From Rickettsiales bacterium (GTDB lineage: Bacteria > Pseudomonadota > Alphaproteobacteria > Rickettsiales > UBA3002), in the NCBI GenBank assembly GCA_046154225.1, contig JBJXEM010000007.1, forward strand, positions 859 through 64,858: a DNA stretch of 64,000 nucleotides, written 5' to 3'. Below are positions 4,110-63,846 of this stretch, one piece after another (within the stretch, counting starts at the first letter, position 1; each line of letters starts with the position of its first letter). Both the position numbers and the translations under genes were made by a program. Under the pieces are notes generated by a model. It was not told the origin of the DNA. It ran no database searches and was given only the letters and a program-made list of their open reading frames with translations.

Positions 4110-4112
4110 CAC

Positions 4113-7100: not shown

Positions 7101-7622
7101 CAGCGCATACTTATCGAGGATTTTTGCCACGTTTGGCAGCTTTCCAGCGCGCATTTCAAGGTTCACGTCCTTCACCGCCGCCATCAAGCGCGACAGATTT
7201 GCCATCACCGCGTCCCTGTGATCGGGATCGTCGTCATCGCCCAGCAAGTGGCCGTCATTGCCTGATTGATACATCGGATTGCCAAGCACATACGCCGCAC
7301 GCGGGACAACGCTTGGAACTTTTGTCTGAGTGCCGTCAGGTTTGTCGACAGTGATTTCCTCCTGCGCCAACTCGATATCGAATAGTTCGAGAGATTGCTG
7401 GCGGCCTGCCGCATTCATGTACCAGTAGAGGGTTTTGAGGTGTGTCACGCCCCCGCTTTTATCGAGCACGGCTTTGGTTTGAATGGCGACGGCGCCACCG
7501 GTGCGCGGATCCACGCCGCCTTCGGCCAACCCTACAGCATGTCCCTCGCCGTTCGCCAGTGCCGGGTGGCTGAGGCCGACCGCGTTCAGAATCGCACGTT
7601 TCGGCCAGCCCCAGTAACTCAT
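4113..7622 (-). CDS. giant metallo-beta-lactamase/beta-CASP (RNase J-like) nuclease with ~400-aa unknown N-terminal region
   Basis: ORF 4113-7655. The likely start is ATG 7622, with AAGGAG 7 nt upstream and an ATGA overlap with the upstream stop. Motifs: ILITHRHLDHTDG (HxHxDH), VLLTGTQGT, SQSAIPGND, and IHAGGHGYAKDCEAWVNMVRADMTASQHT (resembles the RNase J segment hvSGHa...PvHGE). Confidence 0.75.
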   Translation of the reverse strand: MSYWGWPKRAILNAVGLSHPALANGEGHAVGLAEGGVDPRTGGAVAIQTKAVLDKSGGVTHLKTLYWYMNAAGRQQSLELFDIELAQEEITVDKPDGTQTKVPSVVPRAAYVLGNPMYQSGNDGHLLGDDDDPDHRDAVMANLSRLMAAVKDVNLEMRAGKLPNVAKILDKYALKDASGHSLTVTGQSATQDGLVFDAMPGQEMPRDQTITVPEWVAGALMGLDANTIDHDNKLQPVTPLHGTHPETGEDYLTLIHATKGRNPSVRSQYSPSWDFETKPASALPGLTDVAWKSSDDASVVPENRTATLAEMNLCDENFKDDSHLRQMRGLGATNRMMHDARFGKYPAAIDHLVEHDLDDLVYTYTPPPPLAQGGRLSMISVGGNNMEPIVDGLGEAIGGNSKVVCHEGLDKNGKLDRVGVIIDLGLHLSPKDEATLSAAPDVVEHLKYCDDILITHRHLDHTDGLFIYIERGLLRGKTVHCTPEVYRSIRDKLSSYPGISERDLPTFAMLNGQGWLHIKDKQGKTRLSVNYARNATPHSARTTPFFVHGHYEGKWLGSYLNHGDARFGRHNADDYVGREVDADHLDKKFFTESNQRFLDEMQRLAKKNQLAQEVADRFDPEIAKRGPTYFDMDITSIMKNGWGPTEPEVEDNLCEISDWFKDKGMFLAMISTNDNRYETALRVGTRVHRDVTEFGTNLQKTATTMNVGGVNDLRIEPEIRNNILPYLDWYFEYRLRRKIEGHKAKLETTTNERTRRTIENKIERHEARLEFFEKLKDIKSPATRYEKRWEYEQVLKNKFGRKTTLGSLTEDELTLGAIRVGRGSKTARRIMSMDDGDGMHGADSRRLVLLTGTQGTNVEVDAALTAMSQGRHPVLNGNADKSHTARPVNPENNFVVISQSAIPGNDKKQAKMCDDLVAQGYSVVQAIHDGFIIHFAPHDLDRREKIEKRLKSLGKNCVRSEDGKTLVVSGMPIHAGGHGYAKDCEAWVNMVRADMTASQHTSSLEAGERVGEICAAGGHRYMGRIVPNFEKIGIAAGASAAETQITSLGRSMASLIRIQRIIKEGEYHGGYQIATRVRRMDAEGGFVGKGLFATAQKSGMYESALASMDAEYVARAHAERKASPPEPAPENRMAPPGERPDRGADLPGQENRGRLLGRFQNNSAAYAGR

Positions 7623-8080
7623 GCCGAGGCTCCTTTTACCAGCGCCTGCGTCCATAAAACCTGTCCGCGTTTGGACAGTAGCGGCATGATGAGCGCATCC
7701 TTTGGTCGCGCGCTAGCCTTCAACGCGGTGATAATGGTGCCAAGCGTTGCCAGCAGCCGCGGTAGATCGGCCAAATGCGCGCCTGCGTCGCAGGTGAACG
7801 ATGTCACCGCGCACAGCCCGTCGGGCCCGGCGGGCGAGAGCGTCAGTGATAGCACGTCGAAAAACCGGCGCTTGAAACCGGGGCCCTGGCGGTGCATTTC
7901 GAAGCTGAGGATGACGCCCCCGCGCGCCGTTTCCTCGAGCCCGATCGACAGCACCCGGTAATCTCCTGTCGTGGGATTATAATCGGCCAGTTCCGCGCGC
8001 TCGCCCACCACGAGGCAAAGGCTGTGCGAAAATGCCGCCGGGTCGATGCGTAGCGAACCCATGCCAGGTGTTGCGCTCAT
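7619..8080 (-). CDS. hypothetical protein (153 aa), operon-internal
   Basis: ORF with ATGA overlaps at both ends (8077-8080 and 7619-7622). No motif recognised. Confidence 0.6.
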   Translation of the reverse strand: MSATPGMGSLRIDPAAFSHSLCLVVGERAELADYNPTTGDYRVLSIGLEETARGGVILSFEMHRQGPGFKRRFFDVLSLTLSPAGPDGLCAVTSFTCDAGAHLADLPRLLATLGTIITALKASARPKDALIMPLLSKRGQVLWTQALVKGASA

Positions 8081-10410: not shown

Positions 10411-10578
10411 TTCACCCTCGCAGCACTTCGTTGACACCGAAGGAGTGGCAAAGATTTGTGACAGTCGCGTGACGGTTGCCATGCTCAAACCTCATGGCAG
10501 CCATACCCGTTTTGCAACTATTGACTTTTCCCTGCATGGCTGCGACGCAAGGCTCGAATTTTACAAAAGGAGAAGCGA

Positions 10579-11736: not shown

Positions 11737-14700
11737 GTGGCCAAAGTAAAAACAGATAAAATTGAGACTAAAATCGCCACATTAAAGTCATTCTTTAATG
11801 CGGGAGGGTTGCAAATCGTTGCCGAGCCCAAACGCTGGTCCTATCCCAGCCCTTATGCCCCCGATCCCAATCCCAAAGACAATTACTACGCCATTTACGG
11901 TCCGCCCCTCACGCTCGATGCGTTGCAAAACAGCGGCCTTCTTTCCGAATCGGAGCTGAGGCCGCGCGTCGATAGCAAAACCGAAAGCAAGGCCTATCTG
12001 GATAGTGATCTCGCGCTGGCATTTTTGAAAAAATACCCGGAACTTAAAACCGAAACACCAAACCGCCTATTCGCCCTGAGGAATGACGCGCAGGAGCCGA
12101 CCCTCGCCTGTTTCGACACAGGCAGGCCCATCGAAGGCGACACGCACGCCGATGGCACCAAACCCGACAAGCTATCGTACCTGCTTCTCAGTGCCAGCGA
12201 TGCACGGCGTTTCGAACCAGCACTTAAGCGTCTAACGGTCGATGGTCCACGACAGTATATTACCGCCATCCATCACAAGCGCGAAGTGGGCGAATTTATG
12301 ATTCTGCCAATCCGTCACTCGATGGTGGAAAGCATCCGGCGGGCCAATCCCGGATTGATTGATCTGCAACCTGACGAGTTCGACATAGCGCAGGCGCAAG
12401 GCGCCGATATGGCAACAGCCATGCTGCATATCATAGCGAACCTGAAAGGTGACACACGGTTTGAGAAAGAACCGAAAACAAAAACCATTCACCCCAATGC
12501 ACGAGCCGCGCGCGAGCCTCAGCCAGAATTTGAGCCGCTCACCCTCGCCGATTTTCTCGGCAAACTAAAGCCGCACATTCAAGGCTTTCGGCGTATCGAG
12601 CAATTTAACGGCAGCTTTGATACAACCATGAGCGTCAATGGCAGCGCAAAATTGGCCGAACTGATAAAACGCCAAAGCACGCAAGCTAACGATCTTTCAT
12701 TCACGCCAATCCTGCAACATTCCAAGACCGTGGCTTATAAAATCAATCAGGCCACCTACGATGCCCTAAACCCATTGATCAATGGCACCACGATTACCGA
12801 GCATCTCGGCCAACAGAAATTCAATCCAAACTGGACGCAGCCTACCAACATAAAATACCTGAAGCCAAAACGCGATATCCCGCCTGCGCCAACACTAAAA
12901 AGCATTAAAACGCCAGCAGAAGAATACGATCTGGTCTCAGAATCCGTGTATTCGCTGCGCCTTGCATGTAACAGCGACGGCTCCCTTGAGCAGCATTGGT
13001 TGATCGCCGAGCTGGACAGCCCGCGCCGCGGTTTGGTGCTCGCGGAAAAAATGAGCATCGCGCCGGCGAAAGTTTCGGTGCTGACAGCCGAAAATGAAAA
13101 ACCCACCTTAATCCGCATCCCCATCAGCGCCGCTATTGCCGAAAGCCTGCGTGATGACGATGCCAAGCGGGAAACAGATAAGTCACGCGCCAAGGAAATG
13201 CGCATCGATTCGCAAGAAGCCCCCTACGATTCTCTGGAAGCACTAGACGCGGAGCAGCGCAGCCGCGCTGGCGTGACGGAGTCGCTACCCAAAAGCGCAA
13301 AAACACCTGAACCCACCGCTGAACCTGAAGCTGCCACCCACTCCGAAGAAACCATTCGCGCCGACGCCGAGAAATTGCTTTTCCTGAACCAGCCTGCCTT
13401 CGCGGCGCAGCGCGCAATTCACGTCGCGTCCTATGTCTGGACGGTGATTCATGAGAACTACTCCGACATCCCGGGTAAGCATGCGGATTTACAAACGCAG
13501 CTACGCAACGGGCGCGCGTTTCTGGGCATAAAAATACCTAAAACCGACGCGCCTGAATTCGAAAGTGCGCTGAAACATGTTGGTTTTCACGGACCCGTCG
13601 ATCGGCGCCTGACGTTAGTAGGCTCGGCAGGTCAGGACCAGGTTTATAAGCTGTCGCTTGGCAAGCTCGATGCGCTCGCCTTTGAAAAATACCTCACGCC
13701 TGAACATGCGCTGGAAAATGGCTTGGGAAGCAAGCTGGGCTTTTCTTCACAAACCACGTTTCAAAATACCCTCAAATCGCATTTCGGGGTTACTGAAAAA
13801 ACAAAAGAAGAACCGACTGACACCTACGCCGAAGCCTGGTCGCAGCTCGCCAAACTCGCACAAAAAGGCGATCTGAAATACGCGCAGGTGCGCTATGATG
13901 AAGAAACGATTGCCAAGGCGCTTCACGATTTGCAGGCCGACCTCGATCACCTGAAAGAGGTGGCGGCTCGCGCCGAAACACAAACTACACCCGACAACGA
14001 AAAAACGGAAAACCCATTGGCCGCCCTCAGCCCCGCCATTATGCGTCAGGGGGCCAAACTTTACACACTAAAACGCCATCACGAAGGTCGCCTGAATGCG
14101 CTTCGGATTCAAATTGAAACCATGGAAAAAGAAATCAGCACGTTTCGTGATTGGGTCGAGGCGCAACCGCGTACAATCAACGGCGATATTCTGGTCACGA
14201 ATCTGGTACTCCCCGATCCGGGAAGCAATATCATCAACCATCTGAACACGCTGAGAGCGCAGCTTTATAAGCCACCCGGAGCCAAGGAAGAAAAGAAAGA
14301 GAAAGGGGATAAAAAAGAAAAAAACCCCGGCGTTCAGCTTTTCCCCGATCCATTGGAGCATGTGCAAAAAGCCATGGCCGATAAAATAATCATGGCGGGG
14401 AATCGTGAGGTGTTGCAACCCCGCGAGGTGATACTCGTACCCGTTATCCCGCAATTTTTTGATGTGTTACGTATCCACGCGCCCGAAATTGAAGTCGCCG
14501 CACTCGCACCCAAACCGCTTAGCCGTGCCCGACTCCTGCAGTCGTTACGCAGCATGTTTTATGTCGAACCACCTGCGAAAGTAGAGATAGAAAAAGACCG
14601 TTCGTATGATGCAGTGGCCTCGGTGCGTGAAACCCTGCCACGGCGAGATGAATTACTTAATTGCCGCGATATCCTGCGCTACGCCACTCTGGTCGAGGGG

Positions 14701-15627
14701 CACGCGCATGAAAATCTGGCCGCCAAGACCGTAACCCGCAGGCGCGACGATGGCCGCGTGTTCGCGCGCAAGGAAGTGCTGGGCGAGCGCATCGGCGAAC
14801 AGCATGCCGCCATGTTCCACATCCGCGACGCGCGCGACTGGAAACGCGCAGAAATTTTATTAAAAAGACTCACGGCAGCCGATTGGCTCAAAAATCGTGA
14901 GCGCTATGGCGGGCTTATTGAAGCGCCTTTGCCCGACGATCTGCAAGCTGCGATCAATCAGCGCGATCACGCCACGCGGCAGATTGAATGCATTGAAAAC
15001 GATGACCTTCTTTTCCATCTTCAGCAGGTGGCAATAGGTAAAGGCACGGAATTCTCTTTGCCGCATGCACGCGTAGCAGCAAGGGCGCTGTGCGAAGCGG
15101 TCGAGTACGATGAAGATGCGGAAAAAATCCGAGATTTACTACAAACGGATGGCGACATTGATGACACGAAACTCGCCTCGGCCCACGGAAAGCTGGAAGC
15201 AATTTTCAATGAACTCCGCACGCGCCGTAACGAAGCGCAGGAGCGCGTGATTCAGCTCGGCATACACTATAAAATCCCCGAAACCGATGCACGTATGGCA
15301 CCGGAAATTATCGCCGATGAGGCGCCGCTCGCTTACCTGCCCGGTGAGGAACATGGCGTTGCGCTCTCGCAACTGGCCGAATTAATGCCCAAACTACCGG
15401 GCGATGAATCTGTCAGTTTCGTGGTTTACCTCGGGCTCGACGATAAGCGTGAGCCCGACCGGCAGATGATGGCTGCCATGCAGTCTTTTCGCCCGGCGCC
15501 GGATTCTGCAGGTGTACGCTCAGCCAAAGCCATCGAAGAAAAATATGGCCGCACCAGCGGTAACACCCTCGATGAGTGGTTTGCCGAGCGTGGCAAACAT
15601 TTCGGAGTCAGCGGCGAACTCGCATAG
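11737..15627 (+). CDS. hypothetical protein (1296 aa), no recognisable domain
   Basis: Long uninterrupted ORF with a GTG start (gtg gcc aaa gta). It has a K/E-rich low-complexity patch (PGAKEEKKEKGDKKEKNPG). No signal peptide or TM segment is seen. Confidence 0.65.
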   Translation: MAKVKTDKIETKIATLKSFFNAGGLQIVAEPKRWSYPSPYAPDPNPKDNYYAIYGPPLTLDALQNSGLLSESELRPRVDSKTESKAYLDSDLALAFLKKYPELKTETPNRLFALRNDAQEPTLACFDTGRPIEGDTHADGTKPDKLSYLLLSASDARRFEPALKRLTVDGPRQYITAIHHKREVGEFMILPIRHSMVESIRRANPGLIDLQPDEFDIAQAQGADMATAMLHIIANLKGDTRFEKEPKTKTIHPNARAAREPQPEFEPLTLADFLGKLKPHIQGFRRIEQFNGSFDTTMSVNGSAKLAELIKRQSTQANDLSFTPILQHSKTVAYKINQATYDALNPLINGTTITEHLGQQKFNPNWTQPTNIKYLKPKRDIPPAPTLKSIKTPAEEYDLVSESVYSLRLACNSDGSLEQHWLIAELDSPRRGLVLAEKMSIAPAKVSVLTAENEKPTLIRIPISAAIAESLRDDDAKRETDKSRAKEMRIDSQEAPYDSLEALDAEQRSRAGVTESLPKSAKTPEPTAEPEAATHSEETIRADAEKLLFLNQPAFAAQRAIHVASYVWTVIHENYSDIPGKHADLQTQLRNGRAFLGIKIPKTDAPEFESALKHVGFHGPVDRRLTLVGSAGQDQVYKLSLGKLDALAFEKYLTPEHALENGLGSKLGFSSQTTFQNTLKSHFGVTEKTKEEPTDTYAEAWSQLAKLAQKGDLKYAQVRYDEETIAKALHDLQADLDHLKEVAARAETQTTPDNEKTENPLAALSPAIMRQGAKLYTLKRHHEGRLNALRIQIETMEKEISTFRDWVEAQPRTINGDILVTNLVLPDPGSNIINHLNTLRAQLYKPPGAKEEKKEKGDKKEKNPGVQLFPDPLEHVQKAMADKIIMAGNREVLQPREVILVPVIPQFFDVLRIHAPEIEVAALAPKPLSRARLLQSLRSMFYVEPPAKVEIEKDRSYDAVASVRETLPRRDELLNCRDILRYATLVEGHAHENLAAKTVTRRRDDGRVFARKEVLGERIGEQHAAMFHIRDARDWKRAEILLKRLTAADWLKNRERYGGLIEAPLPDDLQAAINQRDHATRQIECIENDDLLFHLQQVAIGKGTEFSLPHARVAARALCEAVEYDEDAEKIRDLLQTDGDIDDTKLASAHGKLEAIFNELRTRRNEAQERVIQLGIHYKIPETDARMAPEIIADEAPLAYLPGEEHGVALSQLAELMPKLPGDESVSFVVYLGLDDKREPDRQMMAAMQSFRPAPDSAGVRSAKAIEEKYGRTSGNTLDEWFAERGKHFGVSGELA

Positions 15628-15922: not shown

Positions 15923-17773
15923 CTAGCCCAACGCTTCTTCGTGGCGACGAATGACGGCGATGAACGCGGCACCGTAGCGCGCAAGCTTCGCATCACCCAC
16001 GCCGCTGATACCGCGTAGCTCCTCGGCATCCCTCGGTTTGCGCTGGGCGAATTCGGCGAGGGTTTTGTCGTGAAAAATCACATAAGGCGGCACGTTATGT
16101 TCGCGCGCGAGCGCGAGGCGCGCGGCTTTTAGCGCGTCGAATAATGTGGCATCCGCCGGGTTCGCCGCGAGGTTCGTGCGTGCAGCGCGTGGCGCGCGTT
16201 CACGCCGTGCAGGGCGGCCCACATACACGCGTAAATGCAAAGCCTCGCGCGCTTTTAGCCACGCATAACCCGTTTGCGTCACCGATAACCCGCCATGTTC
16301 GGCGATGTCGACATGCAGCAGCCCCAGCGCCACCAGTTGGCGAAAAATATTCTGCCATTCCGGCTTGCTCAGCCCTGCACCCACGCCAAAGGTGGGCAAC
16401 TCGTGGTGGCGAAATTGCGTCATGCGGTCGGACGATTTTCCGAGCAGCACATCGATCAGATACATCACCCCAAAGCGCGAGCCGGTGCGGTGCACGGCGG
16501 AAATGGCTTTTTGCGCAGCGATGGTGGCATCGAACGTGGCGGGGGCGGTGTCGCACGTGTCGCAGTTGCCGCAGGGGGGTGCGCCGCCGTCGCCGAAATA
16601 ATGCAGCATGATCTGGCGGCGACAGCTGGCCGCTTCGCACAAGCCCAACAGCGCGTTCAATTTCTGGTGCTCGACGCGTTTTTGGATGTCCGGCGCATTG
16701 CCACCATCGATAAAACTGCGCTGCATGGCGGCGTCTTTCATGCCGTACAGCATCAGTGCTTCGGCCGCCTGCCCGTCGCGCCCGGCACGACCGGTTTCCT
16801 GATAATACGCTTCGATGTTTTTGGGGATGCCCAGATGCGCCACAAACCGCACATCGGGCTTATCGATGCCCATGCCGAACGCCACCGTCGCCACCATTAC
16901 CACCGCTTCTTCGCGCTGGAATTGCTGCTGGTGCACCACGCGCAGCCCCTGCTCCATGCCTGCATGATAGGGCAATGCACGAATCCCTTGCTCCACCAGA
17001 AACGCCGCGATTTCCTCGGTCTGCGCGCGGCTGAGGCAATAGACAATGCCGCTTTCGTTCGCATGGGTGGCGATGAAATCGCGCAATTGCTGCTTCGGAT
17101 TTTTTTTGAGGTCGATGCGGTAATGAATGTTGGGGCGGTCGAACCCGGCCACGAAACTGCGGCCTTCATTTAATTGCAACCGCTCCACAATGTCACGGCG
17201 CGTGGGTGCGTCGGCCGTCGCGGTGAGCGCGATGCGTGGCACGTTTGGAAAACGCGTGGCGAGCAGCCCAAGCTCCATGTAATGCGGCCTGAAATCATGC
17301 CCCCATTGCGACACGCAATGCGCTTCGTCGATCGCGAAGAGCGCGAGCGGCGATTGCTCCAGCAGGTCGAGAAAATCCGGCATCAGCAGTCGCTCGGGCG
17401 CGACATACAGCATGTCGAGCGCACCGTTGCGCAGGTCGCGTTTGGCGTTGGCCACTTCCCCCGCATCAATGAGCGAGTTGATGGCCGCGGCGCGAATGCC
17501 CAGCTCGCGCAACGCCGCCACCTGGTCCTGCATCAGCGCAATCAACGGCGAAATCACGATGCCGACGCCTTGCCGGATGAGCGAGGGAATCTGGTAGCAT
17601 AGCGATTTCCCGCCGCCCGTCGGCATCAGCACGAAGGCATGGCCGCCTGCCACCACATGGTCAATCACCGCCGCCTGCTCACCACGAAACGCGCCGTAGC
17701 CGTAGGTGTGCTGCAGGATATGCAGTGGTGTGGGCTGCGCGGATTCCGCTGAGAGTGGTGAAGCAAGTTGCAT
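15923..17773 (-). CDS. recQ: ATP-dependent DNA helicase RecQ
   Basis: [40 protein letters not shown], the zinc-binding CRRQ..CGNCDTC, and a C-terminal HRDC-like region. The start is uncertain: ORF start 17824, with ATG 17773 fitting the E. coli N-terminus better. Confidence 0.9.
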
Positions 17774-21404: not shown

Positions 21405-21476
21405 TGTCATCCCGGCCTTGTGCCGGGATCTACCTTCCTTGAGAAAGATGGATCCCGGGATAACCCCGGGATGACA
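21405..21476. repeat. palindromic repeat family A, copy A1 (TGTCATCCCGG..CCGGGATC ... GATCCCGGG..CCCGGGATGACA)
   Basis: Two hairpin arms in inverted orientation. The architecture matches the copies at 32968, 42791 and 44278. Confidence 0.8.
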
Positions 21477-21488
21477 TTTTTCGGGCAA

Positions 21489-21629
21489 TTTATAGTCGAT
21501 TTGAATAAAAACTTTACAATTTTGTCATTCCCGCGAAGGCGGGAATCCACTTTTTCATGAAGGAGATTCCCGCCTTCGCGGGAATGACAAAATACATAGC
21601 ATGTACAAAATTTTCGAAACGACTATAAA
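21489..21629. mobile_element. MITE-like element family B, copy B1 (~141 bp)
   Basis: Terminal inverted repeats TTTATAGTCGATTTG / CGAAACGACTATAAA flank internal arms TTGTCATTCCCGCGAAGGCGGGAATC / GATTCCCGCCTTCGCGGGAATGACAA. The same element is inverted at 34910-35052 and diverged at 40168-40321. Confidence 0.8.
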
Positions 21630-24635: not shown

Positions 24636-25433
24636 CTAAAACGGCTGATACTCACGGATTTTGTCGGAAATCTGTTTGTCGGGTGCGGGGGTGCGCACGA
24701 AGGGCACACGCTCGTTATACACACAGAGAATTTCAGCCCCACGGCGCAGAGTGAAGCGCGAGCTGACGCGCTCGACCACGATATAATTGCCGCGCTTGCG
24801 GAAGTTGATGAGCTGCTCGTTCCCGCCGCCATCCACGTTGAAGAAGGCCGGAACCTCAGCGTTTTTGTCGCGCATTTCGAAATAGGTAAACTCACCATCG
24901 TCAAAAATGCGAATGGGTTCGATCACGTTCGAACCGCGCACGGAATAATTGAAGTTATATTTTTCTGGGTTTTTATCCACGTCCGGCAGCGGCTCGAATT
25001 GGCTGAAATCAATTCCTGCGTTGTCGTCGGGGTAAATAAAGCGCAGGCTGAAAATCAGGTCTTTGTCGCGAATATCCTTGGTTTCCTCGGCATGCAGCTC
25101 GAACAGGTACGAGCGTTTGTCGGTGATAACCGTCATGTTGGTCAGCGCGTTCTGCTCGATCGGCTTCAGGAACAAACGATTGCCTGAAGGGTTGACCAGC
25201 CACGCCACGGAATCACCGATCGAGACCGTCTGAATTTTTTCGTCCTCGGCGAATTCGATGGTCGACTGATAGCTGTAATGGCCGATGAACTGGTACACTT
25301 CATTCGGGCTATAGCGCACCGTGCGGATGCGGCTATCGGTCGCAATCGGGCGCGGCGTTTGCAGCGCCAACGCAGGTGCCGCCATGCACAGCCCAACCAA
25401 CAATAGCAAACTAGCGCGCGGGAATAATGTCAT
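24636..25433 (-). CDS. virB9: VirB9/TrbG/CagX-family type IV secretion outer-membrane core protein homologue
   Basis: Signal peptide MTLFPRASLLLLVGLCMAAPALA. Motifs: VRYSPNEVYQFIGHYSYQSTIEFAEDEKIQTVSIGDSVAWLV, TNMTVITDKRSYLFEL, and the C-terminal IFDDGEFTYFEM...LINFRKRGNYIVVERV. Confidence 0.8.
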   Translation of the reverse strand: MTLFPRASLLLLVGLCMAAPALALQTPRPIATDSRIRTVRYSPNEVYQFIGHYSYQSTIEFAEDEKIQTVSIGDSVAWLVNPSGNRLFLKPIEQNALTNMTVITDKRSYLFELHAEETKDIRDKDLIFSLRFIYPDDNAGIDFSQFEPLPDVDKNPEKYNFNYSVRGSNVIEPIRIFDDGEFTYFEMRDKNAEVPAFFNVDGGGNEQLINFRKRGNYIVVERVSSRFTLRRGAEILCVYNERVPFVRTPAPDKQISDKIREYQPF

Positions 25434-26130
25434 AACTGACTACCTGAAACTGAGGATCCTGGGTGGTGGTGATGGGGCGGCCCGCCTCATCCGTACCCGG
25501 GGTGACAACCATGGGAGTGTAGTAATATTGCAGCCGTGTCGTGCCCCGTGCCGGTATGGTGCTAACCGCGAGATTGATAAGCTCGGAACGCCAACTGATA
25601 GTGGCCGTACGCGGCTCGACCTTGTCGTCGATAACAACACTGTCGATGAAAAGCAATCGCTGGCCGTTATAGCCCAATTGCGCCGCCAGGCTTTGTGGGT
25701 TGGTGCTGCTGTACTGCTTGGCGAAATAGGCCGCCGTGGGTTGGTCGGAATGGGCAACAATGAACGCGTAATTGCTAGTGTAATGGCTGTATTCATAGCT
25801 CTCACGCATTTTCACATAAAGCGCGATCAGGTTTCGCTCCATCGCAGGCTCGATGGGTGCACCGGTAGGCTTGATACGCTGCACGTGGGGCACCACGTCG
25901 TCGGGGCGGTCCGAGCGAATGACAATGCCGGGCCGCGAGGTAAGGGGCAGTAGGCTGGTCATGGCAATGATGCCAAACAGGGCCACGAAACTGGCAAGCA
26001 TGGCCACCAACAGAAAAAAGCTGCGTTCCGAGATCGGGCCGATGTATAACGCAGCGTACCACGCGCGCGATTCCTTGTAGTAGGCCCCGCTACGGATCAT
26101 TTCGGCTAGCTGCTTTGCATCGTCGCTCAT
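25411..26130 (-). CDS. virB8: VirB8-like type IV secretion protein homologue
   Basis: Likely start at ATG 26130 (MSDDAKQ...). Features: YYKESRAWYAALY, a single TM (FFLLVAMLASFVALFGIIAMTSLL), then a periplasmic domain with LIALYVKMRESYEY. It overlaps the virB9-like start by 23 nt. Confidence 0.6.
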   Translation of the reverse strand: MSDDAKQLAEMIRSGAYYKESRAWYAALYIGPISERSFFLLVAMLASFVALFGIIAMTSLLPLTSRPGIVIRSDRPDDVVPHVQRIKPTGAPIEPAMERNLIALYVKMRESYEYSHYTSNYAFIVAHSDQPTAAYFAKQYSSTNPQSLAAQLGYNGQRLLFIDSVVIDDKVEPRTATISWRSELINLAVSTIPARGTTRLQYYYTPMVVTPGTDEAGRPITTTQDPQFQVVSYDIIPAR

Positions 26131-26233
26131 GGCCTTCGAATCGCTAAAATTGTAACATTTTCCGTGCAGCTTACCGGGCAGTGTGGTAATGTAAATAACA
26201 ATCACAAAAACAACAGGCTGGTGTGGGTATTTA

Positions 26234-40167: not shown

Positions 40168-40321
40168 AACGACAGTCGAAGCAACCAAAAACCCAAATTT
40201 TGTCATTCCCGCGAAGGCGGGAATCTCCTTTGCCGTTTGCGCTAGGGATTGAATGGGATTCCCGCCTTCGCGGGAATGACAAAGCGAGAGCTGTACGAAA
40301 ATTACGCAAAACGACGATAAT
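40168..40321. mobile_element. MITE-like element family B, copy B3 (diverged termini)
   Basis: Core arms TTTGTCATTCCCGCGAAGGCGGGAATC (40198-40224) and GATTCCCGCCTTCGCGGGAATGACAAA (40257-40283). The termini are degenerate: CGACAGTCG / ACGACGATA. Confidence 0.7.
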
Positions 40322-40329
40322 AGCGACGT

Positions 40330-40584
40330 TTATTCCGAATCCACGCGTTTATAATCGCCGTCGATCACGGTGATGGTGGGCGGAGCGTCCTCAGTCACGG
40401 GCGGAACGCCGGGGGTTGGATTCAAAATACCTTTGGCGATGAGATACGTTTTCAGGTGCGCCCACACCACCGCGATCAACCCAATCGCGAACAGTGCCAG
40501 CAATAGCCACAGTGACACCCACACCGCAAACGCGAGGCCGAGCAACAGCACCGCAAAACCCACCATCTGCATAATCCACGGCAT
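40330..40584 (-). CDS. small membrane protein (84 aa), coupled to fliP
   Basis: Two predicted TM helices. Its ATG overlaps the fliP TGA by 1 nt. Confidence 0.55.
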   Translation of the reverse strand: MPWIMQMVGFAVLLLGLAFAVWVSLWLLLALFAIGLIAVVWAHLKTYLIAKGILNPTPGVPPVTEDAPPTITVIDGDYKRVDSE

Positions 40585-41522
40585 CAGTTCACACCGAAGC
40601 TGCGAACGAGTGAGCCAGCCAGCATGTACCAGCCGTCGATCAGCACGAAGAAAATCACTTTGAACGGCAGCGAAATCACGACCGGCGGCAGCATCATCAT
40701 GCCCATCGCCAGCAGCACCGAGGCGATGACCATGTCGATGATGAGAAACGGTACGAAAATAAGGAACCCGATTTCAAACGAGCGGCGCAATTCGGAAATC
40801 ATGAAGGCCGGAATCACTACGGTGTAGGGCACTGTTTCGGGTGTTTCGACTTTGGTTTTGCTGATGTCAACAAACAGCTGCAAATCCTTCTCGCGCACAT
40901 GGTGCATCATGAAATCGTGGAATGGTGCGGCGGCAAGCTTCAGCCCTTCTTCCTCGCTGATTTTTTCGGCGATGAGGGGCTTGATGCCATCGTCGTAGGC
41001 TTTCTGGAACGTGGGAGTCATGATGAACATGGTGAGAAACAGCGCCAGCGCCACCAGCACTTGGTTGGGCGGGGTGTTTTGCGTGCCCATGGCGGTGCGC
41101 ACGAAGCTGAGCACAATGATAATGCGCATAAAGCTCGTCACCATAATCAGGATCGAAGGCGCGAGGCTCAGTACGGTCAGCAACACCAGCACCTGAATAA
41201 TCCGCGCGGTTGAGGACCCGCCGCCGCCAGCATCGAGGCTAAGGCTCTGTGCCTGCGCGGCTAGGGGCGACAGCAGCAGTGCCAACATGACTGCAGCAAA
41301 ACAGGACCCAACAAATGTCACTCTATATTTACCTCTCCCTTGGGAGAGGTCGAAATCATTCTGCATGATTTCGGGTGAGGGCGTGCGGCGCTTCAGAACG
41401 CCCTCACCCGAAATCCCCTCTAACTCCCCCCGCTTGCAGGGGGAGTTAGAGGGGATTTCGACCTCTCCCAAGGGAGAGGTAAAAAAGTTGGCTGCTTTGT
41501 TCATCAATGCTCGCACGTTCAT
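40584..41522 (-). CDS. fliP: flagellar export apparatus protein FliP (N-terminus carries or is preceded by a family D palindromic element)
   Basis: IIQVLVLLTVLSLAPSILIMVTSFMRIIIVLSFVRTAMGTQNTPPNQVLVALALFLTMFIMTP and later sequence are typical FliP. ATG 41522 forms an ATGA overlap with the fliO stop. An alternative GTG near 41306 lies 10 nt after GGGAGAGG. Confidence 0.85.
   Translation of the reverse strand: MNVRALMNKAANFFTSPLGEVEIPSNSPCKRGELEGISGEGVLKRRTPSPEIMQNDFDLSQGRGKYRVTFVGSCFAAVMLALLLSPLAAQAQSLSLDAGGGGSSTARIIQVLVLLTVLSLAPSILIMVTSFMRIIIVLSFVRTAMGTQNTPPNQVLVALALFLTMFIMTPTFQKAYDDGIKPLIAEKISEEEGLKLAAAPFHDFMMHHVREKDLQLFVDISKTKVETPETVPYTVVIPAFMISELRRSFEIGFLIFVPFLIIDMVIASVLLAMGMMMLPPVVISLPFKVIFFVLIDGWYMLAGSLVRSFGVN
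41329..41482. repeat. family D nested palindromic element, copy D2 (~154 bp)
   Basis: The outer arms TACCTCTCCCTTGGGAGAGGTCGAAAT / ATTTCGACCTCTCCCAAGGGAGAGGTA are reverse complements. Inner hairpins: ATTTCGGGTGAGGGCG..CGCCCTCACCCGAAAT and CCCCTCTAACTCCCCCCgcttgcaGGGGGAGTTAGAGGGG. Confidence 0.85.
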
Positions 41523-41788
41523 GCCTTCTTCTCGAACCGTTCGATGATTTCTGCCTTGTCGGCGGTGATGAGTAACAGATACTCGCGATCGTCGGCGCGT
41601 ACCAGCGTGAGTTTTCGCCGCGGGTCGAGATACAACACATCGACGACGGCCAGCCGCCCCTGCCCGCCGGTAATGCCGCGCAAACGCTTGTCCATGCCGG
41701 TGCGCTTTGCCAACACCGCCAAGCCCCAAATGAGCGCGATGACAAATGCGAGCGCCAGAAAAAACCGGGTGAAATCGACCGTTTCCAC
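41519..41788 (-). CDS. fliO: flagellar biosynthesis protein FliO
   Basis: Single N-terminal TM (FFLALAFVIALIWGLAVLA), then VVDVLYLDPRRKLTLVRADDREYLLLI, located directly upstream of fliP. Confidence 0.75.
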   Translation of the reverse strand: METVDFTRFFLALAFVIALIWGLAVLAKRTGMDKRLRGITGGQGRLAVVDVLYLDPRRKLTLVRADDREYLLLITADKAEIIERFEKKA

Positions 41789-44277: not shown

Positions 44278-44366
44278 TGTCATCCCGGGTTTATCCCGGG
44301 ATCCAGCCACGCCACGCACTATGCGCTTGAGGCCGGACTGGATCCCGGCACAAGGCCGGGATGACA
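44278..44366. repeat. palindromic repeat family A, copy A4
   Basis: TGTCATCCCGGGTTTATCCCGGGATCCAGCC ... GGACTGGATCCCGGCACAAGGCCGGGATGACA. Confidence 0.85.
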
Positions 44367-54213: not shown

Positions 54214-57200
54214 ATGCCCACCACCAGCGACGTTCGCGCCCAGTTTTTGCAATTTTTCGACAGCAAGCAACACCGTGTGTTGCCCAGTTCCAGCCTCGTG
54301 CCGCATAACGACCCGACCCTGATGTTCGCCAACGCAGGCATGAACCAGTTCAAGAATATTTTCACCGGCAACGAAAAGCCGTTAGCCCCACGAGTGACGA
54401 CTACGCAGAAAGTGGTACGCGCCGGGGGCAAACATAACGACCTCGACAATGTGGGCTACACTGCCCGCCACCATACGTTTTTCGAGATGCTCGGCAATTT
54501 CAGTTTCGGCGATTATTTTAAGGAAGGTGCGATTGAATTTGCGTGGGAGCTGCTCACCAACATATGGCAGATTAATCCCGAGAAGCTTTGTGTTACCGTC
54601 TATCATACGGACGATGAAGCCTTTGCACTCTGGAAAAAAATCGCGGGGCTCCCTGAATCGAGAATCATCCGTATCGCCAGCGACGATAATTTCTGGGCGA
54701 TGGGCGACACCGGCCCTTGCGGTCCCTGCTCGGAAATTTTCTACGACCACGGCGCGCATATCGCGGGCGGCCCACCCGGCTCGCCCGATGCCGATGGCGA
54801 CCGGTTCGTGGAAATCTGGAACCTTGTGTTCATGCAGTCCGACCAGAAGGACGCCGACACACGCGTTAATCTTCCCAAACCCTGCATCGATACCGGCATG
54901 GGGCTCGAGCGCATTACCGCCGTGCTGCAAGGGGTTCACGATAATTACGACACGGATTTATTTAAAAACCTGATTGCAGCCTCTGTAAATTTCTCAAAGA
55001 GCAACTCAGCAAAGTCCGCCAGCCACCGTGTCATCGCCGACCATCTGCGCTCCAGCAGTTTTCTCATCGCCGACGGCGTACTGCCCAGTAACGAAGGGCG
55101 CGGCTACGTGCTGCGCCGCATTATGCGCCGCGCGATGCGCCACGCCCACATGCTAGGCTGCCGCGACCCGCTGATGTACAAACTTGTGCCCACGCTGGTT
55201 TCCGAAATGGGCGCCGCCTACCCCGAACTCACCCGCGCCGAAACCGCGATTACCGAAACGCTGAAGCTCGAGGAAGAGCGTTTCAAACAAACGCTGGATC
55301 GCGGGTTAAAACTGCTGGAGGAGGAAAAAGCAAAACTCTTCAGCTCCCCCCCTGAGGGGGAGCGGGCGAGTGTAGCGAGCCGTGGGGGGGACTCTCCACG
55401 CGTCGATGCGCTGAAATCCCCCCCCACCAAATCCGCAGGCGGATTTGACTCCCCCTCGGGGGGGGAGTTGCCAGGGCCCGCCACGCGACCTCAGTTCCCA
55501 GGCGTTGTCGCGTTCAAACTTTACGACACCTTCGGCTTCCCACTCGACCTGACGCAGGATATTTTGCGCGGCGAGAATATTGCGGTCGACCTTGAGGGCT
55601 TCACCGCCGCCATGGACGAGCAAAAAGCCAAAGCCCGCGCGGCGTGGAAAGGCTCGGGGCAGTCGGCCACGGCGGGGCTGTGGTTTGATATTAAAGAACG
55701 CGTCGGCGCGACCGAGTTTTTGGGCTACGCGATGGATGAAGCGGAGGCGCAAGTGGTCGCTATCGTGCATGGCGACGCTGAAGTGCAGTCCGCCGCAGCT
55801 GGCGAAACCGTCAGCGTATTGCTCAATCAAACACCGTTTTACGGCGAATCCGGCGGCCAAATCGGCGATGCGGGAACCTTTAGCGCTAACGGCACTGTCA
55901 TCGGTCTTGTCACCCGCACCGGCAAACTCCTCGATGGGCTGATTGTGCATGAAGTGACGCTCAGCGCATCGCTGAAAGTGGGCGATTCAGTGCAAGCCCA
56001 TATCGCGGGCGATGCACGCCGTCTCATCCGCGCCAACCACTCGGCCACGCACTTGCTGCACGCAGCGCTGCGCGAAAAACTGGGTGAGCACGTTACCCAA
56101 AAGGGCTCGCTCGTGACCGCCGAACGGCTGCGGTTCGACGTGACGAACCCCAAAGCCATCAGCCGCGACGAGTTGGATGCGGTGGAAGCCACGGTCAACC
56201 ACTACGTGGCGCAGCAATCACCCGCCACCACCAAACTGATGACGCAGGATGAAGCCATAAAATCCGGCGCGATGGCGCTGTTCGGCGAAAAATACGGCGA
56301 CGAAGTGCGCGTGCTCGAATTAGGCTACAGAGAAGATACTTCCTTCCTTCACTCCCCCCTTGCGGGGGAGTCGAATCGCCCCTTAAGCGATTCGGTGGGG
56401 GGTACAGCGCCGCAAGAAGCCCCCCACGGATTTTCTCAAGAGAAAATCCCGCTCCCCCGCAAGGGGGGAGCTAAAGTGCCCTTCTCGGTCGAGCTATGCG
56501 GCGGCACCCATGTTGCCAACACCGGCGATATCGGTGCGTTCAAAATTGTCTCGGAAGGCTCGGTCAGCTCCGGTGTGCGGCGAATCGAAGCCGTGACGGG
56601 CGAAGGCGTGCGGGTCTATTTGCTTGAGCAGCTAGAGAAGCTCTCGGCACAGATGCAAGGCCTCATCGGGGAAAATACTCGCCTGCGTGGCGAGCTTAAA
56701 CAACCGGCAAGTGCCGCCATTTCTGCCCCTGATACGGCCGCATTGCACACCGCATCGCTTGCGCAGGTGCCCGCACTTTATGCCGACCAATCCGCCAAAG
56801 CCGCCGCGCCGATTGCTTCGCTCGCGGAAGAAAACAAGAAGCTCGCCAAGCAGCTCGAAAGCGCTAAAAAGCAAGCGGCGATGGATGGCGCAGGCGGCGA
56901 AGCGGATGTTGAAACTATCGGCTCCATCAAACTCGCCAGCAAACATTTTGGCGAGCTGGACGCGAAGTCGCTGCGCGATCTCGCCCAGGCCCTGCAACAA
57001 AAACACGGCGATTGCGTCGTCGTCGCACTTTCCACTACGGAAGGCAAAGCCAACATCATTATCGCCATCGGCAAAGAGATTCAGGGCAAGGTAGCGGCAC
57101 CGGATTTGGTGAAAGTGGCGGTTGAAGCCGTTGGCGGCAAAGGCGGTGGCGGCCGCCCCGAATTCGCCCAAGGCGGCGGGCCTGATGGTGACAAGCTAGA

Positions 57201-57240
57201 TGCGGCGCTTTTGGCGGTAAAGGCGGCGCTCGCATTATAA
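54214..57240 (+). CDS. alaS: alanine--tRNA ligase carrying two in-frame palindromic-element insertions
   Basis: [67 protein letters not shown]. It is 1008 aa versus about 876 aa in E. coli. Confidence 0.95.
55339..55488. repeat. family D palindromic element D3, in frame inside alaS (50 codons)
   Basis: Hairpins: GCTCCCC..GGGGAGC, AAATCCGCagGCGGATTT, ACTCCCCCtcGGGGGGGGAGT. It encodes [50 protein letters not shown], which is absent from canonical AlaS between ..EEEKAKL and [11 protein letters not shown]. Confidence 0.8.
56326..56478. repeat. family D palindromic element D4, in frame inside alaS (51 codons)
   Basis: Hairpins: CTCCCCccttgcGGGGAG, GAATCGCcccttaaGCGATTC, GGATTTTCTCaaGAGAAAATCC, GCTCCCCCgcaaGGGGGGAGC. 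It is inserted between RVLELG and [11 protein letters not shown]. Confidence 0.8.
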
Positions 57241-59000: not shown

Positions 59001-59029
59001 CGGATTCCAGCTTTCGCTGGAATGACGGG
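59001..59029. repeat. solo arm of the GGATTCCAGCTTTCGCTGGAATGAC repeat
   Basis: Identical to the right outer arm at 35064-35088. No partner arm is nearby. Confidence 0.7.
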
Positions 59030-61482: not shown

Positions 61483-61864
61483 GCGTCACTTCCCGCAAAT
61501 CGTAGTGAAACACTTTTGCAATAATCTGCCAGCGATCTGCCACGCATATCAATGTCAGGAAGTCGGTAAAAAATTTTATCCCAATTGCGCATTGTACTTT
61601 GGCAAACGCCGTCACCGGCCCAGCAAACTCGATGGAAATTATGCGGTCAGCGCGCTGTTCATTACGACTGGCAGGGGATTCGCGCTTGGCTACCACTTGG
61701 AAATACTCATCCATATGCAAATGCAGTAATGTTCCGTCCGTGGCGCAAGAATATTGGGCTTTGGGGTGAAAAACCTGCTGCAATAACCCTACATCACTAT
61801 GATAAAGCCCATCGAAATACTGGTTTAGCACTGCTGCCACCGCATGAAAATCATTGCTAGCCAT
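61475..61864 (-). CDS. NTF2/SnoaL-like fold protein (129 aa)
   Basis: AVAAVLNQYFDGLYHSDVGLLQQVFHPKAQY ... RWQIIAKVFHYD resembles NTF2-like (lumazine-binding-type) proteins. It has 8-nt overlaps with both neighbours. Confidence 0.55.
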   Translation of the reverse strand: MASNDFHAVAAVLNQYFDGLYHSDVGLLQQVFHPKAQYSCATDGTLLHLHMDEYFQVVAKRESPASRNEQRADRIISIEFAGPVTAFAKVQCAIGIKFFTDFLTLICVADRWQIIAKVFHYDLREVTHG

Positions 61865-62594
61865 GGAATTCCTCCGCGAAGGCTTTCAAAAACCGCATGC
61901 CGAAGGCGTGGCTTTTTTCGGGGTGGAACTGCGCGCCCACCACATTGCCGCGCGCGAAAGCCGATACAAAATCGTGCCCATAATGGGTGGTGCCCAGCAC
62001 ATCGGACTTTTCGGCGCAGGTGACGTAATAGGAATGCACAAAGTAAAAGCGCGGAGGTTCACTCCCTCCCCCAGAGGGGGAGGGTTGGGGTGGGGGCGAC
62101 TCAAGCGTTGATCCAGGAATATTATCCGCAGTGCCAATCAGCCCCCCTCCCAACCTCCCCCCTCCAGGGGGAGGAACTTGTTCGGCGTAGCCATTTGCGA
62201 AAGGACTGGCGGGGGCGAATGCCACTTCGTCCCAGCCCATATGCGGCACGGGTAACGGCGCCACATCGCGAAATTCGCGCACGGTCGCATCTATCCAGCC
62301 CAGCCCGTCGCAATCGCCCTCTTCGCTGTGCTTGGCCATCAGCTGCATGCCGAGGCAAATGCCTAAAATCGGGGTTTTTTGGCCCAGCACGGCCGTGTCA
62401 AGCGCTGCGCGGTAGCCGCTTTGGTTCAGCCACGCCATCACCGTGGCGAAATGGCCCACGCCAGGTAGGATAACCTTGCTGGCACCCAGCACATCTGCGG
62501 GCGATTGGGCAATACGGGCAGCCACGCCAATGCGTTTGAGCATATTGGCGACCGAGCTGATGTTGCTTTGCTGGGTGTCGATTAAAGTGATCAT
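61857..62594 (-). CDS. glutamine amidotransferase HisH/WbuY-like subunit carrying an in-frame palindromic-element insertion
   Basis: Start at ATG 62594 (MITLIDTQQSN). Motifs: VILPGVGHF, PILGICLGMQLM (catalytic Cys), VPHMGWDEV, FYFVHSYY, GAQFHPEKS. Confidence 0.85.
   Translation of the reverse strand: MITLIDTQQSNISSVANMLKRIGVAARIAQSPADVLGASKVILPGVGHFATVMAWLNQSGYRAALDTAVLGQKTPILGICLGMQLMAKHSEEGDCDGLGWIDATVREFRDVAPLPVPHMGWDEVAFAPASPFANGYAEQVPPPGGGRLGGGLIGTADNIPGSTLESPPPQPSPSGGGSEPPRFYFVHSYYVTCAEKSDVLGTTHYGHDFVSAFARGNVVGAQFHPEKSHAFGMRFLKAFAEEFHG
62053..62178. repeat. family D palindromic element D5, in frame inside the hisH-like gene (~42 codons; boundaries approximate)
   Basis: Hairpins CCCTCCCCCagaGGGGGAGGG and CCTCCCCCCtccaGGGGGAGG. 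It encodes PPPGGGRLGGGLIGTADNIPGSTLESPPPQPSPSGGGSEPP between FANGYAEQV and RFYFVHSY. Confidence 0.75.
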
Positions 62595-62700
62595 GTGCGT
62601 GGTGGGTGGTGAGTGGTGAGTAGTGGCGTTGCGTATAGTTTGTGCTACATAGCATCGGCTTTTTACTTTCACTACTCACAACTCACCACCCACCACGCAC
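62595..62700. repeat. heptad (GTGNGTG)n inverted repeat, family C copy 2, occupying the whole divergent intergenic region
   Basis: GTGCGTGGTGGGTGGTGAGTGGTGAGTAGTG (62595-62625) and CACTACTCACAACTCACCACCCACCACGCAC (62670-62700) form a 31-bp inverted repeat with 1 mismatch. Each arm abuts a start codon (62594 and 62701). Confidence 0.85.
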
Positions 62701-63846
62701 ATGCAACAAACTACTTGCCAAGTCTGCATCATGGACACGACGGACCCCGAAATTGTGTTTCACGGGGCGGATGGCTGCAATCATTGCATCAACGCCCGCG
62801 CACGCATCGAACACGACGCGTTTCCCGGGACCGAGGGTGAAGCGCGGCTGGCCGCACTCGCCGAAACCATTAAAGCCGCAGGGCGCGGCCGGGAATATGA
62901 CTGCCTCGTCGGCATTTCCGGTGGGGTGGATTCGAGCTACGTGATTTACAAGGCAAAGCAACTCGGCCTGCGCCCGCTCGCCCTGCATCTCGATAATGGC
63001 TGGAACTCGGAACTGGCCGTGCATAACATCGAGCGGCTGATGACCAAACTGGGCATCGACCTTGTCACCCACGTCGTCGACTGGGAAGAAATCCGCGATA
63101 TGCAGCGCGCCTGTTTCAACGTGCCGCTGATGGATATCGAAATCGTGTCCGACCACGCTATTTTCGCGGCCATGTTTAAAACCGCCGCGCAGCACGGCAT
63201 TAAATACATTCTCTCCGGCAGCAACGTGGCGACGGAATCCATCATGCCGCGTGCGTGGTTTTACGATAAGCGCGATAGTCGCCATGTGCGCGCAGTGCAT
63301 CGCAAATTCGGCGCAGGCGTACGGCTAAAAACATTTCCGTTCTTATCACCGTGGAAGTTTTTGCAATATGTGTTCGTGAATAAAATCCGGATGATTCCGA
63401 TGTTGAATTATGGCGGTTTCAACAAACCGATGGCGGTGGAATTTTTAGGCCGCGAATTCGACTGGCGCCCCTACCCCAACAAGCACGGCGAATCGACGTT
63501 CACGCGGTTTTTTCAGGATTATTATCTGCCCGCCAAATTCGGCATCGACAAGCGCCGGGCTCATTTCTCGAGCATGATCGCGGCCGGCCAAATGACGCGC
63601 GACGAAGCCATTTCGCGACTAAGCACGCCATTATTTACGCCCGAAGCACTAGCGATTGAGAAAGAATATGTGTTGAAAAAGCTGGGCTACACCTCCCCGG
63701 AATGGGACGCGATCATGGCCCGCCCGGCCACGCCGCATCAGGCCCTGCCGCATAATGGCTGGATGTTTAACACCAACAACCCGCTGGTGCAGTTCATTCG
63801 CCGCACCACCAAAATGGAACGCGGGGCGCGCGGGGGGCGTGCATGA
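62701..63846 (+). CDS. N-acetyl sugar amidotransferase (WbpG/PseA-like PP-loop ATP pyrophosphatase)
   Basis: N-terminal CQVC...CNHC zinc ribbon and the PP-loop CLVGISGGVDSSYV. It pairs with the hisH/hisF-like genes. Confidence 0.8.
   Translation: MQQTTCQVCIMDTTDPEIVFHGADGCNHCINARARIEHDAFPGTEGEARLAALAETIKAAGRGREYDCLVGISGGVDSSYVIYKAKQLGLRPLALHLDNGWNSELAVHNIERLMTKLGIDLVTHVVDWEEIRDMQRACFNVPLMDIEIVSDHAIFAAMFKTAAQHGIKYILSGSNVATESIMPRAWFYDKRDSRHVRAVHRKFGAGVRLKTFPFLSPWKFLQYVFVNKIRMIPMLNYGGFNKPMAVEFLGREFDWRPYPNKHGESTFTRFFQDYYLPAKFGIDKRRAHFSSMIAAGQMTRDEAISRLSTPLFTPEALAIEKEYVLKKLGYTSPEWDAIMARPATPHQALPHNGWMFNTNNPLVQFIRRTTKMERGARGGRA

Follow-up and report, generated by a model that had tools for sequence, protein, structure and literature searches.

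Palindromic DNA repeats in frame within the alanyl-tRNA synthetase and HisH genes of a Rickettsiales bacterium

What are the two extra segments, built at the DNA level of successive hairpins, in the alanyl-tRNA synthetase gene alaS of a Rickettsiales bacterium? The gene (54214-57240, plus strand) lies in a stretch of 64,000 nucleotides of contig JBJXEM010000007.1 (assembly GCA_046154225.1), referred to below as the window, and hosts two copies of the hairpin-rich element that is the subject of this report. Its open reading frame (ORF) matches alanyl-tRNA synthetase (AlaRS) structures in the PDB with E 4e-168, is intact and keeps every conserved motif, and a metagenome-assembled genome (MAG) at NCBI labelled 'Rickettsiales bacterium' encodes an identical protein with the annotation alanine--tRNA ligase. 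A preliminary description, drawn from the letters of the sequence, had reported an AlaS of 1008 aa with two hairpin-built additions, and both the ORF and the stems named there are confirmed. We consider it likely that the extra segments of alaS, together with a third in hisH, each represent a copy of a non-autonomous, palindromic DNA repeat (~110-150 bp) and are translated as disordered loops.

Extra segments of AlaS and repeat copies in the window

The variable segments of AlaS were measured in an alignment of 16 sequences. Site 1, between LLEEEK and FPG..AFKLYD, spans 55 residues in the window protein and 7-8 in P0003-P0010, while site 2, between EVRVLxxG and FSVELCGG, spans 52 residues against 6-7 in the relatives. 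The net gain over the nearest orthologues amounts to 47 codons at site 1 (variable segment 55330-55494) and 45 codons at site 2 (56326-56481), not the exact 50 and 51 proposed earlier, as the intervals used then had included residues native to the loop, for example YREDTS, whose counterpart in relatives is KRADGS. The preliminary description had suggested looking for the same segments in close relatives and for their repetition elsewhere. The closest relative (P0002, 85% identical in the alignment) and P0003-P0010 (72-78%) have neither insert, the P0002 DNA lacks the element at both sites, and the segments recur at other positions of the window and in many other genomes; both results favour the preliminary interpretation. 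The alaS segments are insertions relative to the orthologues.

Both insertions fall in loops. Aligned to E. coli AlaRS, site 1 falls at residues ~385-390, within the aminoacylation/tRNA-recognition fragment (the N-terminal 441 residues) and not at the junction of the catalytic and editing domains, where it had been placed before, whereas the insert at site 2 stops three residues ahead of ELCGGTH, just before that motif as described. The insert peptides are rich in proline, serine and glycine, as had been noticed (15, 14 and 13%, against 5, 7 and 10% across the whole of AlaS). An AlphaFold2 model based on a 117-sequence alignment (mean pLDDT 81.8) shows coil at 384-420 and 710-750, with pLDDT <50 in both stretches, site 1 being flanked by the confident helices H343-377 and H430-440, and site 2 by the strands E697-706 and E755-761. 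Both inserts are thus predicted to be disordered loops, in agreement with the earlier notion of tolerated surface segments.

The two alaS elements measure ~120-125 nt each, and the window copies overall 114-156 nt. Each follows the same order: a terminal hairpin CTCCCCC-loop-GGGGGAG, a hairpin of free sequence, a central stem, a second hairpin of free sequence and an inverted terminal hairpin. When copies are compared side by side, the central stem consists of GTGGGGGG, a loop of 16-30 nt and CCCCCCAC. The closing terminal hairpin is the reverse complement of the opening one, loop included; the 19-nt termini are exact reverse complements at site 2 and differ at one position at site 1. Consensus folding of 16 copies with RNAalifold pairs both termini together, and the loop of hairpin 1 covaries with that of hairpin 5. 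Each alaS segment forms an imperfect palindrome overall, with arms of 51 nt and 76% complementarity found at site 2 by an inverted-repeat scan. Copy 1 (55341-55470, in frame, aa ~376-422) is composed of hairpin 1 (55344-55362), a decayed hairpin 2 (55363-55381), a central stem pairing GTGGGGGGG (55382-55390) with CCCCCCCCAC (55418-55427), hairpin 4 (55428-55447, stem CAAATCCGC/GCGGATTTG) and hairpin 5 (55449-55467). Copy 2 (56349-56473, in frame, aa ~713-753) has hairpin 1 at 56352-56370, hairpin 2 at 56372-56394 (stem CGAATCGC/GCGATTCG), a central stem of 56395-56402 with 56420-56427, hairpin 4 at 56428-56449 (stem GGATTTTCTC/GAGAAAATCC) and hairpin 5 at 56452-56470.

A covariance model, R1, was built from 16 family copies and the window was searched with filters off. 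It finds five copies in 64 kb, four full and one partial, with scores of 84 bits for copy 1 and 109 bits for copy 2, each on both strands. The family had been proposed to occur also at 32853, 41329 and 62053, and the model indeed returns 32856-32880, 41328-41483 and 62063-62176. The window has seven occurrences of the motif CTCCCC-N3-9-GGGGAG (32859, 55344, 55449, 56352, 56452, 62066 and 62155), four of them in alaS, and 100 dinucleotide shuffles have none. Folded as single strands, the four full copies reach z = -5.6 (alaS site 1), -10.6 (alaS site 2), -4.2 (62063-62176) and -16.1 (41328-41483), and none of 200 shuffles was equally stable. Three of the five window copies are genic; these were found by the DNA motif and not through an ORF, and all three are in frame and free of stops. 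Several copies carry GANTC sites, in view of which a tentative identity with the CcrM-associated intergenic repeat of Caulobacter (CIR; Chen and Shapiro 2003) was considered.

The copy at 62063-62176 goes beyond the preliminary description, as it lies itself in frame inside a gene, on the minus strand of hisH (61857-62594, minus strand). It is a variant lacking both variable hairpins (26 bits, E 6e-4), and through it HisH gains 41 aa between AEQ and PRFYFVHSYY. An alignment with the HisH structure 4gud covers only residues 2-136 and 173-241. The nearest HisH relatives (85-87% identical), with lengths of 204-206 aa, lack the 41-residue insert; P0131, more distantly related, carries a similar one at the identical site. 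Directly upstream of the hisH start lies a long inverted repeat (62592-62703) with arms of ~30 nt (GTGCGTGGTGGGTGGTGAGTGGTGAGTAGTG...CACTACTCACAACTCACCACCCACCACGCAC), unrelated in sequence to the alaS elements.

The remaining full copy (41328-41483, 75 bits) belongs to a CCTCTCCC subfamily and is located between fliO (41522-41788, minus strand) and fliP (minus strand, coding below ~41300). Both genes were identified by Pfam matches, and in the relative L122 they overlap without a spacer. The fliP reading frame (40584-41729, minus strand) stays open across the entire element, and an ATG inside it (MQNDFDLSQGRGKYRVTFVG...) is a possible fliP start, so that the element may provide the 5' end of fliP. 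The partial unit (32856-32925) begins 9 nt past the stop of the ORF 31186-32847 and comprises a terminal hairpin CCTCCCCCC-ATC-GGGGGGAGG, a spacer and a GGTGGGGGG tail; its match to the model is itself partial (32856-32880, E 0.04).

The family in other genomes and in the AlaS loops of relatives

To see the family beyond the window, one genome per GTDB species was scanned with the pattern GTGGGGGG-N12-36-CCCCCCAC-N18-28-CTCCCCC, which matches at least 116 loci in species-representative genomes. Among the matches listed, the alphaproteobacterial loci come from MAGs labelled Rickettsiales or Azospirillum and from Caulobacter, Asticcacaulis and Mesorhizobium, those of Planctomycetota from the Gemmataceae genera Frigoriglobus, Gemmata and Urbifossiella, and further ones from one gammaproteobacterial MAG and a few others. 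Isolated carriers include Gemmataceae CJuql4, Caulobacter sp. Root655 and Asticcacaulis machinosus LKC15W. Full copies recovered number 52 by regular expression and ~85 distinct ones by covariance model. Many intergenic copies elsewhere possess an extra, lineage-specific outer inverted repeat beyond the core, for instance GGTTTTGAC...GTCAAAACC in Gemmataceae and, in one alphaproteobacterial MAG, TTCCAGAGCCTAAAG...CTTTAGGCTCTGGAA.

Five copies from the set ascertained by DNA are in frame in genes, with Pfam domains flanking or spanning the insert. The hosts are EPSP synthase (aroA, L030), IleRS (ileS, L106), a UvrD/AddA-like helicase-nuclease (L108) and, in a Frigoriglobus MAG, a HemN-like radical-SAM protein (L024) and a PNP_UDP_1 phosphorylase of the purine-nucleoside-phosphorylase family (L078). 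With hisH counted, in-frame copies are present in at least six kinds of gene beyond alaS, which bears out the parallel to the Rickettsia palindromic elements (RPEs) drawn in the preliminary description. One element frame is used each time, reading SP[LP]EGE..SVGG..PPT..P[PL][QK]GG, while the other frames mostly hit a TGA in a hairpin loop or a TAA past the G-run. The same IleRS (L106:256-4176) also has a GNAT acetyltransferase domain (PF13302, aa 418-560) embedded in its class I synthetase domain. A different arrangement is seen in L004, where a copy (17389-17487) has taken the place of the C-terminus of a Bac_transf (sugar transferase) protein, at the 3' end of its gene: the protein has 227 aa and ends in ...RRGITSPRRGEDGRGALPGTMEHITPPP, whereas those of L122 and L123 have 204 aa and end in ...RRGTQ. 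This copy is a C-terminal fusion and not an internal loop.

At the protein level the family is hard to follow. A profile of eight element peptides gave just three matches against 5.8 billion proteins, and a phmmer search with the site-2 peptide gave three against 1.84 billion representatives, two of them spurious repeat proteins; a peptide of 42-45 aa cannot reach significance at such a database size. A literature search found no relevant prior description of the family in Gemmata or in aminoacyl-tRNA synthetase genes.

Occupancy of the two AlaS loops was surveyed in the 120 best AlaS matches. Element-like inserts are present at site 1 in P0001, P0013, P0018, P0031, P0052, P0060, P0094, P0105 and P0110, and at site 2 in P0001, P0044 and P0060. 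The carriers form at least five groups, and the nearest neighbours of every carrier are empty (P0052 and P0067 are 98% identical, P0018 and P0023 97%, P0060 and P0065 94%). There were therefore several gains or many precise losses, and gain or loss of the insert is recent, because AlaS orthologues of 97-98% identity differ in its presence. The corresponding DNA of four other assemblies contains the five-hairpin element in alaS of L002, L004 and L122 and a decayed copy in L005. Between L122 (filled) and L123 (empty) the net difference at site 1 is +135 nt, and L004 has an additional +198 nt at site 2. Comparison of alaS between L004 (10001-12958) and L122 (10001-12760) reveals a mosaic of identity, from 70% in one 300-nt stretch to 100% in the element region; homologous recombination therefore also moves element-bearing segments. 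The window and L002 share the junction KL|FSSPPEGER although the nearest relatives of both are empty, and the internal hairpin modules of their site-1 copies are both different.

AlaS relatives also carry short inserts of another sequence type: QLAAEGRS occurs twice at site 1 of P0094, C/YHPERS... at ~aa 556 of P0102 and P0117, and LPPLSPPASGGS at ~aa 211 of P0053. Other repeat families may thus colonise AlaS too.

DNA palindrome, whalefall-1 and rival explanations

Pairing within the element is strongly conserved while its sequence is not. In an alignment of 150 covariance-model matches, paired cells make up 93.4% against 75.1% in shuffles, with pairing inflated by the fitting of the alignment to the model; double changes occur in 30 of the 44 pairs, and the covariation score is 0.394 against 0.03-0.05 in slid controls. 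In an alignment-free check, 49% of 104 variable segments, which have 64 distinct arm sequences among them, contain a perfect stem of at least 7 bp, compared with 0.4% of shuffles. All covariance-model matches score about alike on both strands, and the variable covarying stems employ all four Watson-Crick pair types with almost no G-U. This points to a DNA-type palindrome rather than an RNA, complementarity being maintained in DNA because both strands score alike and the covarying stems are nearly devoid of G-U.

The family nevertheless has a relative among RNA motifs. The two arms of the fliO-fliP copy match RF01762 (whalefall-1) on opposite strands at 46.9 and 43.2 bits, above the gathering score of 37 bits. 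The alaS copies remain below it at 31.4, 26.9 and 21.2 bits (window-wide E 3e-4, 8e-3 and 0.55), the matches of 31.4 and 21.2 bits lying on opposite strands of copy 2. An Rfam scan of 18 other carrier loci at the gathering threshold returned whalefall-1 only for the CCTCTCCC subfamily, in L101, and the CTCCCCCC subfamily, to which the alaS type belongs, is generally under the threshold. The layout of hairpin 1, hairpin 2 and then GTGGGGGG agrees with the description of the whalefall-1 motif (PMC2864571, supplementary file 1). Weinberg et al. 2010 knew the motif from a whale-fall metagenome only and rated it a likely non-coding RNA (PMC2864571), and the Rfam type of RF01762 is Gene; sRNA. In the whale-fall contigs (PMC2864571, supplementary file 53), a complementary pyrimidine arm and two further hairpins stand ahead of the motif. 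These contigs and L101:2214-2347 thereby display a 'tail-out' inverted pair (pyrimidine arm, hairpin, hairpin, spacer, hairpin, hairpin, purine arm), whereas the window copies are 'tail-in'. Since units occur in both arrangements, the basic unit seems to be a 56-nt half that pairs in either orientation. From these arrangements we conclude that whalefall-1 is one unit of the present palindromic repeat, its purine-rich 'tail' being one arm of a stem, and the Rfam entry appears to be mis-typed as sRNA.

How might such copies come to lie in essential genes? The element consists of two inverted units, each of which begins with the terminal hairpin, continues with a hairpin of free sequence and closes with a purine-rich tail, and the two tails pair to form the central stem. 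The family is multi-copy and patchily distributed over several phyla. In the explanation that we favour, its copies would come and go at the level of DNA through transposition in trans or hairpin-dependent copying, and possibly by homologous recombination as well. Copies would arrive pre-formed, through a mechanism that recognises or regenerates the hairpin structure. A copy in coding DNA would survive only where the added length is a multiple of three, where the single stop-free frame that the element has per strand is the frame in use, and where the site is a permissive surface loop; it would then presumably be neutral to the host. Read in this frame, the C-runs and G-runs give the Pro/Gly/Ser-rich peptide SP[LP]EGE...SVGG...PPT...P[PL][QK]GG, which would be translated as a disordered loop. 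No transposase or RAYT gene was detected by Pfam among the window ORFs scanned, which fits a non-autonomous element, and TAR...YTA flanks at roughly half of the alphaproteobacterial copies hint at a TA target.

Several points weigh against this explanation. All the evidence for translation is of one kind, namely the conservation of frame and the lack of stops in essential genes. The scanned window ORFs yielded no autonomous partner, and the filled/empty pairs L122/L123 and L004/L122 show no clean target-site duplication, their flanks being remodelled (extra or remodelled flanking DNA is present at both filled sites). The word 'mobile' stands for an inferred, not a directly observed, movement. 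Outside the window, the in-ORF cases were mostly found via ORF continuity, which biases them towards in-frame copies. Recurrence at the two AlaS loops could be explained by target preference or recombinational transfer as well as by selection.

Some of these points lend themselves to other explanations. Spread mainly by homologous recombination or gene conversion among related genomes, combined with local hairpin-templated repair, would make the elements selfish or neutral palindromes and not transposable elements. It would account for the L004/L122 mosaic with its identical element region, for the junction shared by the window and L002 amid empty relatives, and for the missing target-site duplication and transposase. 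Exchange between orthologous sites, however, cannot produce copies at unrelated loci, and such copies exist at genic and intergenic positions both within one genome and across phyla; the differing internal modules of the window and L002 copies also speak against it, and we regard this explanation as improbable. Hardly better placed is the view that the elements are functional structured RNAs, either the whalefall-1 sRNA or mRNA structures that regulate the translation or stability of alaS, hisH and fliP. It draws on the RF01762 match above the gathering score at 41329-41482 and the two better sub-threshold matches in alaS, on the strong covariation of stems and on the published rating of the motif. 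Yet the matches form inverted pairs with equal scores on both strands, G-U is avoided as expected if both DNA strands must pair and as is unusual for RNA, copies sit in either orientation within unrelated coding regions of several phyla, and the whale-fall motif itself is one arm of a larger inverted arrangement, all of which leaves this view quite improbable.

The inserts might also be present in the DNA but absent from the mature protein, through ribosome bypass, as in mitochondrial byp elements and T4 gene 60, or through excision at the mRNA or protein level. Hairpins as stable as these (-46 to -52 kcal/mol as DNA) would indeed be expected to hinder ribosomes on an essential mRNA. But all three genic window copies and all alaS copies examined in the four other assemblies are in frame and stop-free, a constraint that would be needless if the segment were skipped, and the same element frame is used in unrelated host genes, so that we consider bypass or excision highly improbable. 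An intein or intron was rejected, as the inserts bear no such signatures and are members of a repeat family. Least credible of all is the origin of the segments as lineage-specific loops that evolved in place with incidental hairpins. Other AlaS relatives do have short unrelated inserts at these positions, which implies intrinsically variable loops, but the closest relatives lack the segments, the DNA belongs to a multi-copy family with non-coding members, and the fold z values of the two segments are those of strongly structured sequences (-5.6 and -10.6). The motif repeats in the window, the empty closest relatives and the copies found by the covariance model refute this origin, to which we assign practically no probability.

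Returning to the translated palindromic repeat, a broader proposal can be made, for and against which we see about equal grounds: whalefall-1 would be not an RNA gene but an arm of a cross-phylum palindromic mobile DNA, of which the structure rather than the sequence is propagated, and which colonises coding sequences in frame, has repeatedly hit the same two AlaRS loops in at least five lineages and is an ongoing source of disordered loops. If this is true, the repeated hits on the AlaRS loops imply either strong filtering or a preference for targets of a certain structure or sequence, in-frame colonisation occurs on a scale documented so far mainly for the RPEs of Rickettsia, and essential bacterial enzymes have a general and ongoing source of new disordered loops.

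The window contains further features of its own. A second intergenic family of hairpin pairs is found at 21409-21585, 32972-33052, 34886-35085, 40205-40277, 44282-44362 and 59004-59023, with the stems TGTCATTCC[CA]GC-GAAR-GC[GT]GGAATC and ATCCCGG[GC]-N5-[GC]CCGGGAT, mostly as inverted pairs. It gives weak R1 matches (30-34 bits) and sub-threshold Rfam matches to WsnRNA46 and SSRC34, and it fits ATTCCC-N8-GGGAAT, the pattern of the neisserial dRS3 repeats. For five very long ORFs (168-4112, 4113-7655, 8077-10488, 11737-15627 and 26234-31198; 803-1654 aa), Pfam gave no match at E 1e-5, and one of them adjoins a VirB8-like gene (25414-26268).

Comparison with known systems

The closest functional parallel is provided by the RPEs, palindromic repeats that reside in frame in housekeeping genes (Ogata et al. 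2000 and 2002, summarised in PMC10969869). RPEs and the present elements alike are multi-copy palindromes of ~100-150 bp (114-156 nt in the window, with five copies in 64 kb), both frequently occur in frame in unrelated housekeeping genes with a recurrent peptide at fold-compatible sites, and for neither is a transposase known. The present family is set apart by composition, with its G+C-rich hairpins of C-runs and G-runs, and its arms resemble whalefall-1, in line with the earlier statement that the sequence family differs from that of the RPEs. The Rickettsia genome is AT-rich, and a close similarity to its repeats is implausible for copies of 57-70% G+C. The present elements are also modular, with five hairpins of which the internal ones covary freely, and cross phyla (Alphaproteobacteria, Gemmataceae of the Planctomycetota and others), while RPEs belong to one genus. 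With whalefall-1 the family shares its design, and the gathering threshold is exceeded by the fliO-fliP copy but not by those in alaS; what Rfam lists as an sRNA from a whale-fall metagenome only is here an arm of a DNA palindrome, matched on both strands, in coding regions and in sequenced genomes.

MITEs (miniature transposable elements with inverted repeats) such as Correia/NEMIS, ERIC and Nezha (PMC10969869) are likewise small, have terminal inverted repeats and no coding capacity for a transposase, and exist in many copies, occasionally in frame within genes. The present family differs in that TA flanks accompany roughly half of the alphaproteobacterial copies only, in that no parent insertion sequence was found in the scanned window ORFs, and in that covariation of the internal hairpins looks as though copying or selection acted on structure and not on sequence. 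The REP/REPIN-RAYT system (PMC3116915) also employs a short hairpin unit in inverted doublets that fold into a longer hairpin, with structure kept while sequence varies. Here, by contrast, the unit is ~56 nt with two hairpins and a tail, there is no GTAG-type REP signature and no RAYT gene among the scanned window ORFs, and many copies lie inside genes, unlike REPs, which by definition are extragenic. Mitochondria harbour G+C-rich hairpin elements too, yeast GC clusters and byps among them. Those of sponge mtDNA (PMC2800124) are G+C-rich mobile hairpins able to sit in coding regions, but such elements are organellar and shorter, and some are bypassed in translation; this comparison is one of descriptions, not of sequences.

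In-frame colonisation of essential genes, treated largely as a peculiarity of Rickettsia, thus extends to alphaproteobacterial MAGs and to Planctomycetota. Near-identical orthologues with and without the insert constitute a natural experiment on how proteins tolerate or acquire disordered loops, and the isolated carriers make translation, mobility and fitness cost directly testable. Annotators will meet the peptide SPLEGE..SVGG..PPT..PPQGG in many 'hypothetical' and housekeeping proteins. Taken against the known systems, the present family parallels the RPEs functionally, is MITE-like and REPIN-doublet-like in its anatomy, and is a protein-colonising palindromic repeat.

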